Origin: a virus
Length of the DNA: 35,725 nt
Virus record (IMG/VR): IMGVR_UViG_3300021057_000011
Coordinates: 1 to 35,725 of that record
Strand: one strand, 5' to 3'
Shown: positions 8,017 through 32,599 of the stretch, piece by piece
How the letters are laid out: every line of letters begins with the position of its first letter
Position numbering within the stretch: the stretch's first letter is position 1
Program-made: the position numbers and the translations under genes
The notes under the pieces: model-generated
What the model saw: the letters and a program-made list of their open reading frames with translations, nothing else
Told to the model about the DNA's origin: nothing
Database searches by the model: none

Positions 8017-8240
8017 ATAAAATCCATCAGAAGATCACAGTAAACCGGAAGACGCTCTACGGGTGTCAGCACCTCTGAGACGTACTTCCCCACTGTATGA
8101 GCATCGTAGCGCAGCACCTTCATCCTACCGCCTTTGGTGAGAATAAACTCGACCCGATGCCGATTGGTGTCGGCTTCCTTGAAGGCATTCGTGGCGATAT
8201 GCTTCCAGCCCTCGGCCAGCAGCTGTTTGAGTTTGGTCAT
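8013..8240 (-). CDS. Hypothetical protein
   Basis: 75 aa, AAGGAG RBS, ATGA overlap. Confidence 0.7.
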   Translation of the reverse strand: MTKLKQLLAEGWKHIATNAFKEADTNRHRVEFILTKGGRMKVLRYDAHTVGKYVSEVLTPVERLPVYCDLLMDFI

Positions 8241-8989
8241 CGGTAGCTCCTTACATAGTCTCGTGCCGCGGAGCTGAGCTCCGCGCGCACGGTGCTGAAT
8301 TCGGGGTAGCGGCCTTCGAGATCCGCCAGGCGTAGCTGAATGTGCCGGGCCGTCAAGCGGTGGTCGCGGTTCATCTGGGTCCGGGCCTGATGGAAGCTTT
8401 TATGTCGCTCCCGAATATGCCAGTCCAAAGCCTGAGCGAACTGGGTCGAGGGACTTCTGTCGTAAGGGATCCAGCTCTCCGGGTCATGGGGACTGGGGGC
8501 GCCATGAAAGAGCCGATCGAAGGCTTCGGTCTCAGCATAGTACATCAGGACGAAGAACTCCTCCCAGTCACGCTCGGAGGGTTCAATCGGCCTACGCATC
8601 TCTCGCGGCCGCAACACTCCCCATTGCTCCCCGTTGTGAAACGGAACTGTCTCTTCGATGATCATGTAGTGAAGAGTTCTAGAGCGTATGGACATCCAAG
8701 GTCTATGCCGCCGCGGGCGGCGCGAGACGAGCACCTCTGTCAGCTCATTACTCAACTCCATCCAAGCGTACTGAAACGTGTAGGGAGAGCGGCTTGACGG
8801 ATGAAATTCAATTCGCCCCGTACTATCTTGTCCCGCTGCCCAGATCGCCACCCCGTCCCGTATGAAAATGACCGCCACGCCCGCAGAAAGGGAGGTCGTG
8901 ATCTGGAGCTGCAGCTCATTCTGCAGCCCGGCCCGGACAATCTTCCGCCGCAGTTTTTTGGCCTCGCGGTAGAGCCACGACCGGGTCAT
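8237..8989 (-). CDS. Hypothetical protein, AKKLRRKI-leader family member 1 (250 aa)
   Basis: Start MTRSWLY with ATGA overlap and GGAGG; N-terminus paralogous to 8986..9318. Confidence 0.7.
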   Translation of the reverse strand: MTRSWLYREAKKLRRKIVRAGLQNELQLQITTSLSAGVAVIFIRDGVAIWAAGQDSTGRIEFHPSSRSPYTFQYAWMELSNELTEVLVSRRPRRHRPWMSIRSRTLHYMIIEETVPFHNGEQWGVLRPREMRRPIEPSERDWEEFFVLMYYAETEAFDRLFHGAPSPHDPESWIPYDRSPSTQFAQALDWHIRERHKSFHQARTQMNRDHRLTARHIQLRLADLEGRYPEFSTVRAELSSAARDYVRSYR

Positions 8990-9318
8990 GCAGCCCTCCG
9001 TTCTCGTTGCCGCGCAATAAAGGAGTTCAGCAGCTGATCGGCCTGGGTGAAGAAACTTTCCAGCAACGTCTCGGTGGAGGTGTAGTCCAGATCGAAGGGT
9101 CGGCGACCCGTGATGGCGCTGAACCCGCTGGCCGAAATATCCATATCGCACTCCGACAGCTCACTCGTATGGCGGTAATTCCCCATCGGCCGGCTGACCG
9201 TGATCTGCAGGCTTCCAGGGTGGATAGATATCCGAAGCTGCATCTCCCGCTTCAACCCCGCGCGGAAGATCTTGCGGCGGAGCTTCTTGGCCCGTTTGTA
9301 AAGGCGGCCGAGGTTCAT
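8986..9318 (-). CDS. Hypothetical protein, AKKLRRKI-leader family member 2
   Basis: LYKRAKKLRRKIFRAGLKREMQLRI. Confidence 0.7.
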   Translation of the reverse strand: MNLGRLYKRAKKLRRKIFRAGLKREMQLRISIHPGSLQITVSRPMGNYRHTSELSECDMDISASGFSAITGRRPFDLDYTSTETLLESFFTQADQLLNSFIARQRERRAA

Positions 9319-16180: not shown

Positions 16181-16509
16181 TCTTCTTCCTCGCTTTCGTC
16201 ATCCCATTCGCCGGTTTCTTCGTAGAACTCTTTCGCCGCCAGGGCGGCCATATGCCAGGGATCGTTCGGATCCTCCTCCAGGTAGTCTCGAACCTCGCCG
16301 GGCCCATCGAGCAGAACGCAGCCGGCAGAGCAACCGAATGAAATCGTCTCGTAGTTCTCGAGGACCCCTTCCACCCGATCCGGCTCGAGCGCACAGAGGG
16401 CGAGCGCCTGCTCCTCGGTCGCCTTCACAAGGACCTTGCCGCCTTTGGCGCGGACAAGGACATGCACCCACTCGGGATCGTTTGTACATTCGGAGCTTGG
16501 GTCCATCAT
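16177..16509 (-). CDS. Highly acidic hypothetical protein
   Basis: 110 aa; tail EETGEWDDESEEEE. Confidence 0.7.
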   Translation of the reverse strand: MMDPSSECTNDPEWVHVLVRAKGGKVLVKATEEQALALCALEPDRVEGVLENYETISFGCSAGCVLLDGPGEVRDYLEEDPNDPWHMAALAAKEFYEETGEWDDESEEEE

Positions 16510-17102
16510 CGGCAGCTCCCCACCGGCAGGATCAAATCGTCAACTCGCCGCACCCTGCATTCGATCTCCATCTGCCGGATATCCACATCTCGGAACGCGG
16601 TAGGAGACCCCGGGACAAACGGACACGTCCACTGCCCCTCACTATCCCGCATCAGAATCATGCCGGCGTGGTAAAGCCGATCATAGCCTCGGGTCAGGAC
16701 ATAGATCGGCGGCGGAGAGGGAGTTTCTGAAACCCCGACCAGGTCTCCCAGCAACTTCTCGGTCAGATCGTGATTGAATTTCTGCCGCAGCATCCCAAAG
16801 ACCTCATAGAAGCCCCAGAGACAGGCCTTGGTTCCCGGGGTAAATCGGACCGAATACGTATCGAACCCTTCGCCGCCACAAATGCGAAACTCGCCGACCT
16901 CGGTCTTCCACTCCTGTAGGGGCGCAACAACGATCATTTCGTGCGTCAGTTCACGGCCATCGCGAAAAACCAAGGTCCGCTGGATCAGATCCCCAACTTC
17001 ATTCTCTACGGCGGAAACCACCTGGGCCAAATCGAATTGCCAGGTCATCTCGATCTCATCGTCCTCGGTGTGCTTCTCGAGCACCAGGGTTTTAATGTAC
17101 AT
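16506..17102 (-). CDS. Hypothetical protein, 198 aa
   Basis: AAAGGAGG RBS. Confidence 0.75.
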   Translation of the reverse strand: MYIKTLVLEKHTEDDEIEMTWQFDLAQVVSAVENEVGDLIQRTLVFRDGRELTHEMIVVAPLQEWKTEVGEFRICGGEGFDTYSVRFTPGTKACLWGFYEVFGMLRQKFNHDLTEKLLGDLVGVSETPSPPPIYVLTRGYDRLYHAGMILMRDSEGQWTCPFVPGSPTAFRDVDIRQMEIECRVRRVDDLILPVGSCR

Positions 17103-17113
17103 ATCTATCCTCC

Positions 17114-17127
17114 TTTAAGATCTTAAA
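17114..17127. promoter_or_regulatory. Perfect 14-bp palindrome TTTAAGATCTTAAA abutting an RBS (possible operator)
   Basis: Read directly from the sequence; function inferred. Confidence 0.35.
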
Positions 17128-17147
17128 AAGCCCCGCTGGGGGGGCTT
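17125..17147 (-). terminator. Rho-independent terminator
   Basis: AAGCCCC...GGGGCTT followed by T run. Confidence 0.6.
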
Positions 17148-17179
17148 AGACAAACTAAACGATTCGATCAGCTTAAGCT

Positions 17180-17446
17180 TTAAACTTCTTTCAGACGCAG
17201 TAATTTAGCCGCCTTACCTTTTCGCCGTAATTTTTCAAGTAAAAAACGACCCTCACGCATATGGCTGAACCATCCGGCTATATACCAAGTAGCCTGGGCG
17301 AAATCATAAGCAACGACAACAAACTGTAACATGGTCTGACTGATTCGCCGACCGAGCAAAGTTTCCTCAAACATCACCCAATGCGCATGGTCGCCTGCTC
17401 CGATCGCAGACCGGTAGCCCTGTATATCTACTAAGTCTTTTCCCAT
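17180..17446 (-). CDS. Low-GC 88-aa hypothetical protein downstream of the CRISPR-like repeat
   Basis: GAGG upstream; visibly more AT-rich than flanks; basic C-terminus. Confidence 0.55.
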   Translation of the reverse strand: MGKDLVDIQGYRSAIGAGDHAHWVMFEETLLGRRISQTMLQFVVVAYDFAQATWYIAGWFSHMREGRFLLEKLRRKGKAAKLLRLKEV

Positions 17447-17453
17447 ACTACCT

Positions 17454-17482
17454 CAGTTCATTACCACGCTCGTGGGGAACAG
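17454..17482 (-). CRISPR. Solitary type I-E-like CRISPR repeat (no array)
   Basis: 29 nt CTGTTCCCCACGAGCGTGGTAATGAACTG versus I-E pattern (G/C)TGTTCCCCRCG..CGYGGGGATRAACCG; no second copy at +/-61 nt. Confidence 0.7.
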
Positions 17483-17589
17483 ACGATGCTCCCGCCACGG
17501 ATCCGAATCAGCAGCTTGAGCGACCCTTCCACCCGGGCCCGGTAAATCTTTCGCCGGACCTTCTTGGCCAGGCGGAGCAGGGAATTCAT
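17461..17589 (-). pseudogene. Truncated third AKKLRRKI-leader paralog (42 aa) ending inside the repeat
   Basis: MNSLLRLAKKVRRKIYRARVEGSLKLLIRIRGGSIV-CSPRAW*; ATGA overlap with 17586..17912. Confidence 0.55.
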
Positions 17590-17912
17590 GCCAGCACCTC
17601 GTCCTCGAGCTTCAGGATTTTCAAAAAGTCCCACAGGGCCTTCTTGGTGAAGGTCTGCCAGTGGTAGTCCCCAGGCAGGAAAAGCGCAGGCCGCCCCGAC
17701 TCAGGAATCATAAATATCAGCTCCCCCTTGCCTCCTGGCATCCACGGCTCTTCCGGGACGATGTAGGGGATGCGCCAGGACAGTCCACCGGAACGAGGAC
17801 GGACTTCTTTCCGCACCTCACCAGCGGGCAAATAACTGAAGGTTTCATCGCCGCGGCGACAGAACCAAAATTCAATTCGATGAGTGCTGTGCTGCTCAAC
17901 TGCGTTGATCAT
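17586..17912 (-). CDS. Hypothetical protein
   Basis: 108 aa, AGGAGG RBS, TATACT -10-like box upstream. Confidence 0.7.
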   Translation of the reverse strand: MINAVEQHSTHRIEFWFCRRGDETFSYLPAGEVRKEVRPRSGGLSWRIPYIVPEEPWMPGGKGELIFMIPESGRPALFLPGDYHWQTFTKKALWDFLKILKLEDEVLA

Positions 17913-17960
17913 AGGGTGCCTCCTGGGGGATCTTACTAGTATAGAAAATTTCTCCAGACC

Positions 17961-17985
17961 AAAAGCCCCTGTGTTCCAGGGGCTT
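17961..17985 (-). terminator. Rho-independent terminator after the recombinase
   Basis: AAGCCCCTG-GAACA-CAGGGGCTTTT. Confidence 0.7.
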
Positions 17986-18005
17986 GAGCAAAGTTTGTGC
18001 GGGGG

Positions 18006-19580
18006 TCAGGCGGGTATGAGAGCCCGCAAAAGCGCATAGACAGGGGTTCCTACCTGCCTGTGAGAGCGTGTGGAATGATCCAAGTAGCCGGGATGGTAGT
18101 TGGCGCTTTCCACAAATTCCAGGGCATAGGCCTCGGGGATATAAGCGAGGTGAATATCGACCGCTCCGGGGCTGATGATGAGGTGCTCGACGAGCTGTTC
18201 CAGCTGTCGGTTTTTTTGCTCGGTGGAGAAGTCGTCCCAGTGGGCCAGGACCCGCTGGGCACTCTCGACGGCAGCGGAGGTCGCGTAGGACTGGGTGCGC
18301 AGATGGGCAAGCTCGCCTTCGAGGCGGGGGATTTCCTGCTCGAGGGCTTTTTTCTGGGCCTCGAACTTCGCGTCCATCGCAGCGAAACGCTCCTCGCTCC
18401 ATTTGCCCGAGAGAAAGAGCTGGAAGGTTTTTTCCTGGTCTCTGAGGGTCTGAGCCAGGTCTTTCTTGGCGCCGGCGAGCAGGGTTTCCTTGGCCGTGAT
18501 GTGGGTCTCGAGCTGCTCAATCGGTTGGGTCAGGGCTTCCGGGGCCGCAAAGAAGGTGGTCAATCGCTGCCGGAAAATCGCTTCGAGCACGGTGAGCCGG
18601 ATCTGGGTGTGGCAGGCCCGGCAGCGGAATTTTTGGGTCTTGTGCTGCTTGCGGTCGTCGCAGTACATCTTCTTGCCGCAGTGGCATTTGACAAAGCCAC
18701 TGAAGGGGTAAACCCCTTTCTTGGACTTCGCCGGCGGGCGCTTGGTGTAGTCGGCCATCAATATATGATAGGTGGCCTGCCAGAGCTCCCGAGGGATGAT
18801 CGGCAGGGTGGTGTGGTAGAGCCACTCCGCTTCGGGCTTGGGGAGGCAGGTGCTGGTTTTCAGCCCGCGCTTGAGGGTCGAGTAATTCGCCTTGCGCCGC
18901 CCGATGCCGGTTTCGTCCAGCAGCAGGTAGCGGACCGAGGAATCGCTCCAAGCCCCGCCGCGCTGAGTTTTGTAGCCGCGGCGGTTCATCTCGGTCGCCA
19001 CCGTGCGGCAGCGGCGGTGCTCCAGAAACAGGGTGTGCAGTTCGAGCCGAATCGAGGCCGTGGGCGGATGGGGCACCAGGACCCCGTCCTGCCATTCGTA
19101 CCCAAACGGCGCTTTGCCGCCGAGGTGCTTGCCGAGCTGGGCCCGGACCTTGACACTGGCCACCATGCGTGAGCGGATGTTCTCCCAGTCCCACTCCGCC
19201 AGCACGGCGATGATGCCGTAGAGCATCCGGCCGTGGGGGGTGGAGGTATCGAGGTTCATGTCCAGGCAAATCAAGGCCGCATTTTTTTCCTGGCACAGGT
19301 CCGCGACATTCAACAGCACCTTGCGCCGGCGGGCGAGACGTTCGAGCTTGGAGAACATCAGGCCCTTGATGCGGCCGGCGGTGATATCGTCGACCATGCG
19401 CAGGTACTCCGGGTGCTCCTCGACGATCATGCCGCTGACCCCGTCGAGGACATAGACCGCGGCCACCTCGCGCTGGGAGCGCTCGGCATAGGCTTTGCAC
19501 GCAATCAAATGGTGCTCGAGGCTGTCGGAATCGGGATCATCTTTCGAGACCCGGGCCCACACGCCAACGGGAATACTCAT
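18006..19580 (-). CDS. Large serine recombinase (integrase-like), 524 aa
   Basis: WARVS catalytic Ser; SKLERLAR; LDTSTPHGR; GGKAPFGY; Zn ribbon CHCG...CRAC; coiled coil; GGAGG before MSIPVG. Confidence 0.92.
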   Translation of the reverse strand: MSIPVGVWARVSKDDPDSDSLEHHLIACKAYAERSQREVAAVYVLDGVSGMIVEEHPEYLRMVDDITAGRIKGLMFSKLERLARRRKVLLNVADLCQEKNAALICLDMNLDTSTPHGRMLYGIIAVLAEWDWENIRSRMVASVKVRAQLGKHLGGKAPFGYEWQDGVLVPHPPTASIRLELHTLFLEHRRCRTVATEMNRRGYKTQRGGAWSDSSVRYLLLDETGIGRRKANYSTLKRGLKTSTCLPKPEAEWLYHTTLPIIPRELWQATYHILMADYTKRPPAKSKKGVYPFSGFVKCHCGKKMYCDDRKQHKTQKFRCRACHTQIRLTVLEAIFRQRLTTFFAAPEALTQPIEQLETHITAKETLLAGAKKDLAQTLRDQEKTFQLFLSGKWSEERFAAMDAKFEAQKKALEQEIPRLEGELAHLRTQSYATSAAVESAQRVLAHWDDFSTEQKNRQLEQLVEHLIISPGAVDIHLAYIPEAYALEFVESANYHPGYLDHSTRSHRQVGTPVYALLRALIPA

Positions 19581-30408: not shown

Positions 30409-31161
30409 TTAGTAATGAGGGTAATAATCACGGGTCGGTTTGGACGGCAGACCGAGGTGGTCCCAGCGCCGCTGGATGTCCTGGCGCTGCTGATCGATCT
30501 CGGCTATCTCTTCCGTCCGCCGGATCCGCCGGCCAAGGGGGGTCTTGCGGACCGGGTCCTTGCTTTTGAGCCGCCGATCCGGCCGGGTGAGGTCTTCGTC
30601 CAAGCGCTGGACCAGCAGGACCAGAAAAAAAGCCACATCAAGATCGGTGTCGGTCGCCTCCTGCATGAAGATGGTGGATGCAAAGCAAAAGACCCGCATC
30701 GATTCCTGCAGCCGCGCGCGGAAGGCCCGATCGGTGCGCTCGGCGTGGAGAATGCGGGCAAAGAAAAAGCAGACCTGCCCCTGGAGAAAGTAGGGGCAGG
30801 AAGTGGCGAAGGCGCACTTGCTGCACCAGGGGGAATCGAAGTAGGGAACGGCTTTCAAGGCGGCCTTGGGGGTCAGGTTCTTGCCCTTGAAATGGGTGCG
30901 GAAGTTGAAGCGGGGTTTGGGATCGGGCGTGTGGATAAACTTGCGGGCCACGTCCAGGACGCAGTCCAGGTAGCTCAGGTGAAAGGCCTGGGCCAGCACC
31001 GAGCCGGATTTTTTTCCGTGCAGCGCGTAATCGTAGCGCGGGATGCTAGCTAAACCGGGATGGATCGAAAGGGTCCGGCTCGCCGGCAGCGCCGGGATCA
31101 TCCGTGTCTCGTTCCGATAGCGGAGTGGTGGGGTAGATTTCGCCATCGTCATCGTCCTCAA
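30409..31161 (-). CDS. Cys-cluster protein related to the C-terminal domain of the TGT-like neighbour (start uncertain, possibly 31101)
   Basis: CSKCAFATSCPYFLQGQVCFF versus CNTC...CEAYKPDAGCYY. Confidence 0.6.
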   Translation of the reverse strand: MRTMTMAKSTPPLRYRNETRMIPALPASRTLSIHPGLASIPRYDYALHGKKSGSVLAQAFHLSYLDCVLDVARKFIHTPDPKPRFNFRTHFKGKNLTPKAALKAVPYFDSPWCSKCAFATSCPYFLQGQVCFFFARILHAERTDRAFRARLQESMRVFCFASTIFMQEATDTDLDVAFFLVLLVQRLDEDLTRPDRRLKSKDPVRKTPLGRRIRRTEEIAEIDQQRQDIQRRWDHLGLPSKPTRDYYPHY

Positions 31162-32599
31162 ACAGATCTTTCACTTTGTCCTGGGTGGCCTGGGTGGGCA
31201 GCACCGTCTTGGCACCGACCTTGGGCATGGTGCGCTCGACCTTTTCCAGCTGCCCGAAGGCATTGGCCATCTTGATGAAGGTCCCGAGCTCCTTGCTCAG
31301 GGCCGGATCAAAACTGCCGCCGGTGCGGGCCTCGATCATGGCCCCGTGGTGGATGCGGTTGGCCTGCAACGACGAGAGAGCCCCGAGCACCCCCTTCATG
31401 TCGTTCATGGAGCCGATGGAGACCATGTTGGCGTAGTAGCAGCCGGCATCGGGCTTGTAAGCTTCGCAGGCAGACGGCGCATCCCCCAGCGGCCGCAGCT
31501 GGCAGGTATTGCACTGCCGCGGCATCAGCATGCGCGGGTCGATGTACGGGCTCAGGCCCTCGGGCAGCATGGTCTGGATCGGGGTGTTGCGAATCATCTC
31601 GGCGCTGCGGGCCACCTGGGTGTACTGGGCCTCGGCATCGGGGGTGACCCCCAAACCGAAGGTCTCGATCATCAGATCCTTGGCCTTGGCCTGCTCGGCG
31701 GCGGTGAGCCAGTAGGACTGGACGATGTGCAGCGCGGCATAATCGGCATAGCATTTCCAAGCGTGTGCGTTCATGGTGTGCACCGCAGCGGAGTCGTCCT
31801 TGAAAATGCCCTCGACATCAAGGCCCGCGGCGATGAACTTGTGCCGGTACTTGTTGCGGATCTCCTCTTTGTGATCGGAGTTAAAAGCCTGCAACCGGTG
31901 GTTGTCCCAGATGTAGGTGACCCCGTACTTGCCACCGGCGAGCCAGGACGCCGAGTCGACGGAGAAGTAGGGCGAGCGGTTGATCGAGCCTTCATCAACA
32001 GCCCCGTGGGCATGCATCAGGATGCCTTTGTCGGCGAAGCTGCGCTGGAGCCCCTGCAGCTCGGGGCTGACACTCTCGGTCAGCTCCGGGTGCAGGGCCA
32101 CGACCGGGAACTTGTAAAAGCCGTGCTCCTTGAGGGCGCCCAGATGGGCCCGGCGCACCACGGGCACGACCCGGATGCCGTTGTCGCGCAGCTCGTCGAG
32201 GTGGTCCTTGCGGAACTGCTCGGACAGCTGGCTGGCCAGGTCGACCTCGAAGACCCAGGTGAAGACCTCGGCCATCTCCTGCACGTACTCGAGGTACTCA
32301 GCGGTGTAGGCCTGGATCTCGGCGACGGTGGCCGGCTTGCCTTTTTTGGCCTGCTGGATGTAAGCCTGCCCGCCGGCATCGAGCAGCACATGGTCGAACT
32401 TCGCCAGCTGCTGTTTGACCTTGGTCGGGTTGTGGTTGCGCAGGTAGAAATAGGAGACCAGGATATTGCGGATCCCGGCTTTGTAGGCGTAGCTGCGCAG
32501 GGTGTCGTTCTCCGCGCCGCCGAGGAAAATCAGCTTGCCGTAGACCTCGTGCTGCAGCGGCCGCATCTTGGGGTACTCGGCATTGAAGTCACGATACAT
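31046..32599 (-). CDS. tRNA-guanine transglycosylase-fold (DpdA-like) protein fused to a Cys-rich C-terminal domain
   Basis: ILVSYFY; LLDAGG (cf. DSG); HAHG (cf. HxxG); SVDSASWL.GGKYG; C-terminal CxxC...C...C. Confidence 0.7.
   Translation of the reverse strand: MYRDFNAEYPKMRPLQHEVYGKLIFLGGAENDTLRSYAYKAGIRNILVSYFYLRNHNPTKVKQQLAKFDHVLLDAGGQAYIQQAKKGKPATVAEIQAYTAEYLEYVQEMAEVFTWVFEVDLASQLSEQFRKDHLDELRDNGIRVVPVVRRAHLGALKEHGFYKFPVVALHPELTESVSPELQGLQRSFADKGILMHAHGAVDEGSINRSPYFSVDSASWLAGGKYGVTYIWDNHRLQAFNSDHKEEIRNKYRHKFIAAGLDVEGIFKDDSAAVHTMNAHAWKCYADYAALHIVQSYWLTAAEQAKAKDLMIETFGLGVTPDAEAQYTQVARSAEMIRNTPIQTMLPEGLSPYIDPRMLMPRQCNTCQLRPLGDAPSACEAYKPDAGCYYANMVSIGSMNDMKGVLGALSSLQANRIHHGAMIEARTGGSFDPALSKELGTFIKMANAFGQLEKVERTMPKVGAKTVLPTQATQDKVKDLFEDDDDGEIYPTTPLSERDTDDPGAAGEPDPFDPSRFS

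Follow-up and report, generated by a model that had tools for sequence, protein, structure and literature searches.

The window analysed here is a 35,725-nt stretch that forms the first 35.7 kb of a 101,449-bp virus record from IMG/VR (IMGVR_UViG_3300021057_000011). An identical phage is present in an independent assembly (100% identity across 20 kb), and its genes include those for a family A DNA polymerase, helicases, a UvsX-like recombinase, a tail protein, a DpdA-like enzyme and a large serine integrase. The feature of interest is a 29-mer on the minus strand at 17454..17482, about 520 bp downstream of the gene for the large serine recombinase (integrase; 18006..19580, minus strand), which heads this part of a long one-strand block of small ORFans. 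Following the direction of transcription from the integrase, we find a 108-aa ORFan (17586..17912), a 42-aa basic ORF that shares an ATGA overlap with it (17461..17589), the 29-mer, a GAGG Shine-Dalgarno sequence (17451..17454) that takes its first G from the last base of the 29-mer and is separated by 4 nt from the next ATG, the 88-aa ORFan that starts there (17180..17446), and an intrinsic terminator (17125..17147), all of them on the minus strand. The 29-mer is therefore oriented with the gene block, as the sequence-only reading of this DNA had it, and its 3' end lies 7 nt ahead of the ATG at 17446, again as that reading had described for what it took to be a CRISPR repeat handle.

We searched the record and its neighbourhoods for relatives and for recognisable defence or counter-defence genes. 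The 88-aa, 108-aa and 198-aa proteins, compared with 5.8 billion protein clusters, each matched itself only, and no related viral contigs were found via the 88-aa, 108-aa or integrase proteins. DNA comparison with 50,697 phage records gave no match, the nearest DNA polymerases of cultured phages were at most 31% identical to that of this phage, and when the genomes with the closest repeats (see below) were searched for a prophage relative, only their own PolA was returned. The phage carries no tRNAs, and no cas6e, cas7e or cas1 was found in the 101-kb record. Of 361 spacers taken from the fetched type I-E arrays (see below), none matched the phage convincingly, the best agreeing at 20/21 positions. 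Among 20 neighbouring genes there was no Acr or Aca match in Pfam or PHROG, with novel Acrs remaining conceivable, and the 88-aa and 108-aa proteins had no match in the PDB. An Rfam scan of 16500-18500 at E values up to 10 returned neither CRISPR-DR nor any other relevant family. Up to 250 nt upstream of the 29-mer on the minus strand, no sigma-70-like promoter was detected; its transcription by operon read-through is plausible. Elsewhere in the window, at 31046-32599 on the minus strand, lies the DpdA-like queuine tRNA-ribosyltransferase homologue (PHROG 887, E 2e-26), which suggests 7-deazaguanine modification of the phage DNA, an anti-restriction measure.

Read on the minus strand from 17482 to 17454, the 29-mer is CTGTTCCCCACGAGCGTGGTAATGAACTG, with a single occurrence both in the window and in the whole 101,449-bp record. 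It shares 26 of 29 bases with the repeat CTGTTCCCCACGAGCGTGGGGATGAACCG, present in 12 copies in an array of Methylobacter sp. sgz302048 (L029) that has a Cas6e gene 1.3 kb away, and differs from it by T20, A21 and T28 (window positions 17463, 17462 and 17455). The strand and position given in the sequence-only reading were correct, and the type I-E repeat to which it had compared the 29-mer, with three differences, is thus a real one. That reading had also made its case depend on a close I-E match, which the Methylobacter repeat provides, and its description of the element as solitary and without cas genes nearby holds across all 101 kb. Pattern scans of IMG/VR and of 185,579 species genomes yielded many arrays of the family [G/C]TGTTCCCCACG-NN-CGTGGGGATGAACCG, which can also be written CCCCACG-NNNN-CGTGGGG/ATGAACCG. 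We assign this family to type I-E because in three genomes, those of Methylobacter sp. sgz302048, Nitrosomonas sp. Nm33 and a Sulfuricella MAG, Cas6e (PF08798) genes are found at a distance of 1.3-2.6 kb from the arrays; the phage 29-mer has both the length of about 29 nt and the identity to repeats of cas6e-adjacent arrays that define a type I-E repeat.

The similarity is well above background. The 5' 19 nt are exact, and 7 of the 10 final bases match as well (P = 0.0035), whereas in contig shuffles (n = 5) the best hits to three canonical repeat variants had 8-9 mismatches, as opposed to 3 for the phage copy. Judged from these alignments, the 29-mer is a descendant of a type I-E CRISPR repeat and not a chance resemblance. 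Alignment of the flanks revealed no second or partial repeat above chance within 150 nt, so that the 29-mer also has no other repeat within 100 bp, as the SRUFinder procedure for solitary repeats demands.

The repeat is not intergenic, since its first 22 nt (17482..17461) encode the end of the 42-aa ORF, namely its last six codons (CSPRAW) and a TAA stop, with a TGA immediately after. This ORF bears a coding signature, with a codon score of 0.23, which only 2% of spurious short ORFs reach, and a GC3 of 0.79, and it was called as a gene in L015. Its residues 1 to ~36 are homologous to the N-terminal 'AKKLRRKI' module of two paralogs encoded elsewhere on the same strand of the window: paralog A (110 aa, 8986..9318), which runs on past the point that corresponds to the repeat junction, and paralog B (250 aa, 8237..8989), which has this N-terminal module in common with paralog A. 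The three-member alignment has 15 invariant columns, among them AKK-RRKI. The homology stops where the repeat starts, and the residues that the repeat encodes have no counterpart in the paralogs. The three proteins form an intra-phage family in which a basic N-terminal module of ~35 aa (invariant AKK-RRKI-RA) is joined to unrelated C-terminal parts of 0, ~75 and ~215 aa; neither Pfam nor PHROG contained a match to the family.

On the other side of the repeat, the composition of the DNA changes. GC3 falls across it from 0.79 to 0.44, the latter being the value for the 88-aa ORFan compared with 0.75 for phage genes, and local GC is 0.40-0.48 in this segment versus ~0.60. The segment is closed by the intrinsic terminator (AAGCCCC, loop CCCAGC, GGGGCTT and a T-run; -13.3 kcal/mol, z -2.4), which directly precedes the 198-aa gene's strong RBS, and there phage-typical composition resumes. 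The 88-aa ORFan, itself of atypical composition, is on these signatures a moron-like cargo gene in a foreign cassette that begins at the repeat. Homologues of its product were found neither in the 5.8-billion-cluster nor in a 1.84-billion-representative protein set, a full HMMER search gave repetitive spurious matches only, and there was no PDB lead and no informative Atlas neighbour. Its structure is predicted as a single long helix (pLDDT 73), and its hydropathy maximum of 1.1 is under the usual transmembrane cut-off. The 6-bp hairpin that the sequence-only reading had noticed downstream of the repeat, as a possible 3' end of an aberrant crRNA, does exist (17411..17393, 42 nt downstream) but is unexceptional: it lies inside the 88-aa coding sequence, lacks a T-run, and 24 of 200 shuffles fold equally well.

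Around this unit we also observed a pair of direct repeats at 17059-17093 and 17599-17621 (15/18 and 9/9 bases, 528-540 nt apart), of borderline significance. They are placed where the 108-aa gene ends and where the 198-aa gene starts, and so enclose the segment formed by the 42-aa ORF, the repeat and the 88-aa cassette; they might have been left behind by the insertion of the unit.

Two other readings of the site were considered. Deletion of the 29 nt joins the 42-aa and 88-aa ORFs in frame, which would fit simple insertion of a repeat into one gene; yet this split-gene reading is not supported, because the 88-aa protein is unlike the C-terminal parts of the paralogs and is of foreign composition. 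The attP site of the serine integrase was also considered. The att sites of serine integrases do not require long identity with attB, and with the repeat 520 bp from the integrase gene we set this candidate aside.

To see how the phage copy departs from working repeats of its family, we compared it with 339 internal repeats out of ~30 arrays. Position 20 is G in 339/339 of these, position 21 is G in 337/339 and position 28 is C in 339/339, where positions 20-21 had been left free in the search patterns of both scans and position 28 in that of the genome scan only. All three phage differences hence hit invariant or near-invariant positions. The GG to TA change costs the Cas6e hairpin its two basal pairs, and with them the G that adjoins the cut site, and the resulting U20 and A21 oppose C7 and C6, neither of which carries a compensating change. 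What is canonically a 7-bp stem with a tetraloop and a C6-G21 pair at the cleavage site is left with 4 bp in the phage copy, and the calculated stability of the hairpin falls from -12.8 to -6.4 kcal/mol. The sequence-only reading had listed a failure of Cas6e processing, in view of this shortening of the stem, among the grounds for giving up its proposal, and the shortening is borne out. In the fold of a 66-nt context, the partner of the CCCCACG arm is an upstream CGUGG; when folded in isolation, a 4-bp top stem with a GUUC/GAAC lower helix is still possible. The third change alters the 8-nt 5' handle, which reads AUGAACUG and not the canonical AUGAACCG (7/8 bases retained), and T at position 28 was confined to rare terminal or solitary copies. 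Scans of IMG/VR, of the 185,579 species genomes, where just the AG-loop variant occurs, and of 241 million metagenome records turned up no other instance of the TA variant.

Cas6 enzymes are known to straddle the terminal base pair of the hairpin and to read its major groove (PMC3902920), and mutation of the stem-base C6/G20 abolished both Cas6f binding and RacrIF1 activity (PMC10651486). Since two of the changes deprive the hairpin of its base and of the G at the cleavage site, Cas6e would most likely no longer bind or cut this repeat efficiently. The conserved positions, the folding and the published mutagenesis of a related system together indicate that function has probably been lost, and that what has most likely gone is efficient Cas6e recognition, binding and cutting, and with it any RNA anti-CRISPR action of the phage copy.

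Solitary repeat units that act as RNA anti-CRISPRs (Racrs), including RacrIE1/2 and the bicistronic acrIC5-racrIC1 locus, have been described in phages (Camara-Wilpert et al, 2023; PMC10651486). They are characterised by binding and processing by the cognate Cas6, leading to aberrant Cas subcomplexes, by a promoter within 250 bp upstream or co-transcription, and by a host with the matching CRISPR-Cas subtype, and acr or aca genes are frequently nearby. The phage element resembles them in being a single repeat-derived unit in a phage, without array or cas genes, co-oriented with its operon and in an accessory-gene region. It differs in its broken stem base, its coding overlap and its 26/29 identity, and in having no detectable promoter, no layout of an RNA with a short tail and terminator, and no recognisable acr neighbour. 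SRUFinder, the published procedure for detecting such units, requires identity and coverage to a known repeat of 90% or more each and a bit score of at least 41.1, and it considers intergenic sequence only, after masking of confident ORFs (PMC10651486). The phage copy falls below these cut-offs: blastn-short at word size 6 aligned 19 of 29 nt (66% local coverage) with 38.2 bits, global identity was 89.7% (26/29), and 22 of its 29 nt lie within the called 42-aa ORF.

Solitary repeats of the same family were also detected in seven other IMG/VR contigs (L005, L006, L007, L008, L011, L012 and L014). The GGGG stem base is intact in 7/7 of these, and the phage copy alone has TA, plus the C28T change; five are identical to a canonical repeat at 29/29 positions, and the departures of L006 and L014 are in the final two bases. 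They often abut an upstream stop codon and precede the RBS and ATG of the next gene. We inspected five intact-stem copies in unrelated contigs (L005:8569-8597, L006:1963-1991, L007:3879-3907, L008:1408-1436 and L012:249-277) individually. The repeat starts at or directly after the upstream stop codon in four of the five (L005, L006, L008 and L012), an RBS and ATG follow within 20-30 nt in three (L007, L008 and L012), and L007 has a 23-codon mini-ORF that runs through the repeat.

Taken together, we favour the explanation that the 29-mer is probably a decayed solitary type I-E repeat, a relic at a cassette junction that no longer works as an RNA anti-CRISPR. According to this model, a former solitary repeat would have gathered changes at the positions that Cas6e needs. 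It forms the 5' edge of a compositionally foreign cassette of ~360 bp, made up of repeat, RBS, 88-aa ORFan and terminator, and this cassette would have replaced the remainder of a resident gene, leaving only the N-terminal module behind. We read the repeat as a junction because the paralog homology ends at it, GC3 drops across it and a terminator follows the 88-aa gene. Its present role would be incidental: the truncated 42-aa ORF takes its last six codons and its tandem stops (TAA TGA) from the repeat, which also contributes to the Shine-Dalgarno context of the 88-aa gene. The source of the repeat would be a phage Racr-type cassette, to which origin from a host array is the rival. The interpretation offered by the sequence-only reading thus survives in part: a solitary type I-E derivative does lie in operon orientation within a phage accessory-gene block, whereas its function as a Racr or a Cas6e cleavage site is not supported, given the lost stem base, the changes at conserved positions, the scores below the SRUFinder cut-offs, and the lack of a promoter match upstream and of a recognised acr or aca neighbour.

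That the element might still function is, in our view, unlikely. Transcribed with the operon, it would bind Cas6e and/or Cas5e-Cas7e and serve either as a weak decoy, that is, a Racr, or as a Cas6e-sensitive leader of the 88-aa gene that would make its expression depend on whether a type I-E system is present. Consistent with this, it is a true I-E derivative, solitary, carried by a phage and in operon orientation, its 19-nt 5' part is perfect and 7/8 of its handle is kept, and the intact solitary repeats of other viral contigs fill a like slot, with a stop codon before and an RBS and ATG after. Operon-embedded Racrs are also documented, acrIC5-racrIC1 being an example (PMC10651486), and an integrase-proximal block of small ORFans is a typical setting for counter-defence regions. 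Moreover, all three changes fall in the last 10 nt, which under random decay has a P of about 0.03-0.05, and on this distribution the clustering in the 3' third may be a sign of selection and not of neutral decay; the preserved 19 nt could also stem from coding constraint on the 5' part. Against continued function, two basal stem pairs and the G of the scissile site are gone without compensation, the analogous RacrIF1 mutant is inactive (PMC10651486), and each change is at an invariant or near-invariant position. The scores under the SRUFinder thresholds, the overlap with a coding ORF and the missing promoter and acr matches weigh in the same direction, as do the uniqueness of the TA variant among all collections scanned and the expectation that the RNA after the handle would be a 330-nt mRNA instead of a short tail.

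A different source for the same DNA is likewise improbable, namely that the phage captured host sequence consisting of the degenerate terminal repeat of a host I-E array and the first gene on its trailer side, i.e., the 88-aa ORF with its terminator. The repeat family offers a precedent in the array of Nitrosomonas sp. Nm33 (L031), whose trailer-end repeats (...GTGGGAATGAACCG and ...GATGAACTA) resemble the phage copy in having point changes at otherwise invariant positions, with G21A and C28T each present; they belong to a 34-repeat array beside cas genes, whereas the phage copy is alone. In the phage copy, the degeneracy is restricted to the 3' third. In addition, the foreign composition lies on the trailer (3') side and not on the leader side, the cassette has a terminator of its own, and the junction truncates a resident gene. 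On the other hand, the absence of an 88-aa homologue from the searched bacterial and metagenomic protein sets gives no pointer to a donor locus, neither a spacer remnant nor a second repeat accompanies the 29-mer, and comparison of its flanks with those of the ~30 fetched arrays revealed neither leader nor trailer similarity outside the repeat.

The last four Nm33 repeats (L031:5748-5961) switch the loop from GG to AG and carry the point changes G21A; C15T; G12A with A13G; and C1T with CG to TA at the 3' end. On their sequences, they are an illustration of trailer-end decay in this repeat family.

More speculative, and doubtful to a greater degree than the two readings above, is the idea that the damaged repeat acts as an attenuated docking leader for Cas6e or Cascade on a horizontally acquired gene, such that the 88-aa protein would be made or stabilised only in type I-E cells and, more broadly, that solitary repeats placed between a stop codon and an RBS, of which several unrelated contigs with this repeat family give examples, are portable cassette junctions or sensors.

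It is very unlikely that the element works in the manner of Cracr or CreA guides, with the repeat giving the 5' handle and the next 20-32 nt steering Cascade to a host cas or toxin promoter. Cracr units consist of repeat, spacer and repeat, the spacer matching the cas or creT promoter (Liu et al, bioRxiv 10.1101/2024.10.29.618823), and are recognised by a pseudo-repeat/pseudo-spacer/pseudo-repeat arrangement with at least 9 PAM-proximal bp matching one of these promoters. Phage crlRNAs of type I-E with degenerate repeats do exist (bioRxiv 10.1101/2024.10.29.618823), and viral Cracr arrays are like the phage element in being phage-borne, degenerate repeat-like units that exploit host Cas proteins. 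However, the handle would require Cas6e cutting, which the broken stem disfavours, the second pseudo-repeat is absent, and the 'spacer' would be the RBS and first codons of a gene. The sequence-only reading had suggested comparing the sequence after the repeat with host cas promoters; in 238 kb of fetched I-E loci, matches to the 45 nt that follow it did not exceed 10 nt.

Finally, chance resemblance of a coding sequence to a CRISPR repeat, of which the coding look-alikes L038 and L039 with 6 mismatches (described below) give an example, is effectively refuted by the combination of 3 mismatches and a 19-nt exact run where shuffles gave at least 8 mismatches, and by the finding that the residues encoded by the repeat are exactly those without a counterpart in the paralogs.

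The phage element belongs with the known solitary repeat units of phages. Several defining features of a functional Racr are missing from it, so that it is best classed as a degenerate member or relic and not as a new kind of element; only the truncated-paralog junction and the foreign cassette are mildly unusual. Phage solitary CRISPR repeats are a recognised class of counter-defence elements, and we describe here what is probably a dead example, in which the damage falls exactly on the invariant positions of Cas6e recognition. The locus indicates that a solitary repeat can lie at the seam where a cassette has truncated a resident gene and, in this respect, is a modest addition to what is known of the entry of accessory cassettes into phage genomes. 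It also calls for caution in the automated calling of Racrs, as repeat similarity alone does not equal function. Were the element active after all, it would imply an unexpected tolerance of Cas6e for stem-base changes.

Two further observations were made during the scans. Among the metagenome matches, only L038:958-986 and L039:4409-4437, on two 95%-identical contigs, have a base other than G at both stem positions. There, the end of a gene (...EFPTAVAMN*) agrees with the I-E repeat at 23/29 positions and is followed by a terminator, and the sole difference between the two contigs within the 29-mer is synonymous; given this synonymous difference in the C-terminus of a gene, we set these matches aside as CRISPR repeats and regard them as probably a coding coincidence. 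In a Planctomycetales MAG (L030:2946-3000), we found a solitary repeat, ATGTTCCCCACGAGCGTGGGGATGAACCG, followed 17 nt later by a second, free-standing ATGAACCG handle-like octamer.
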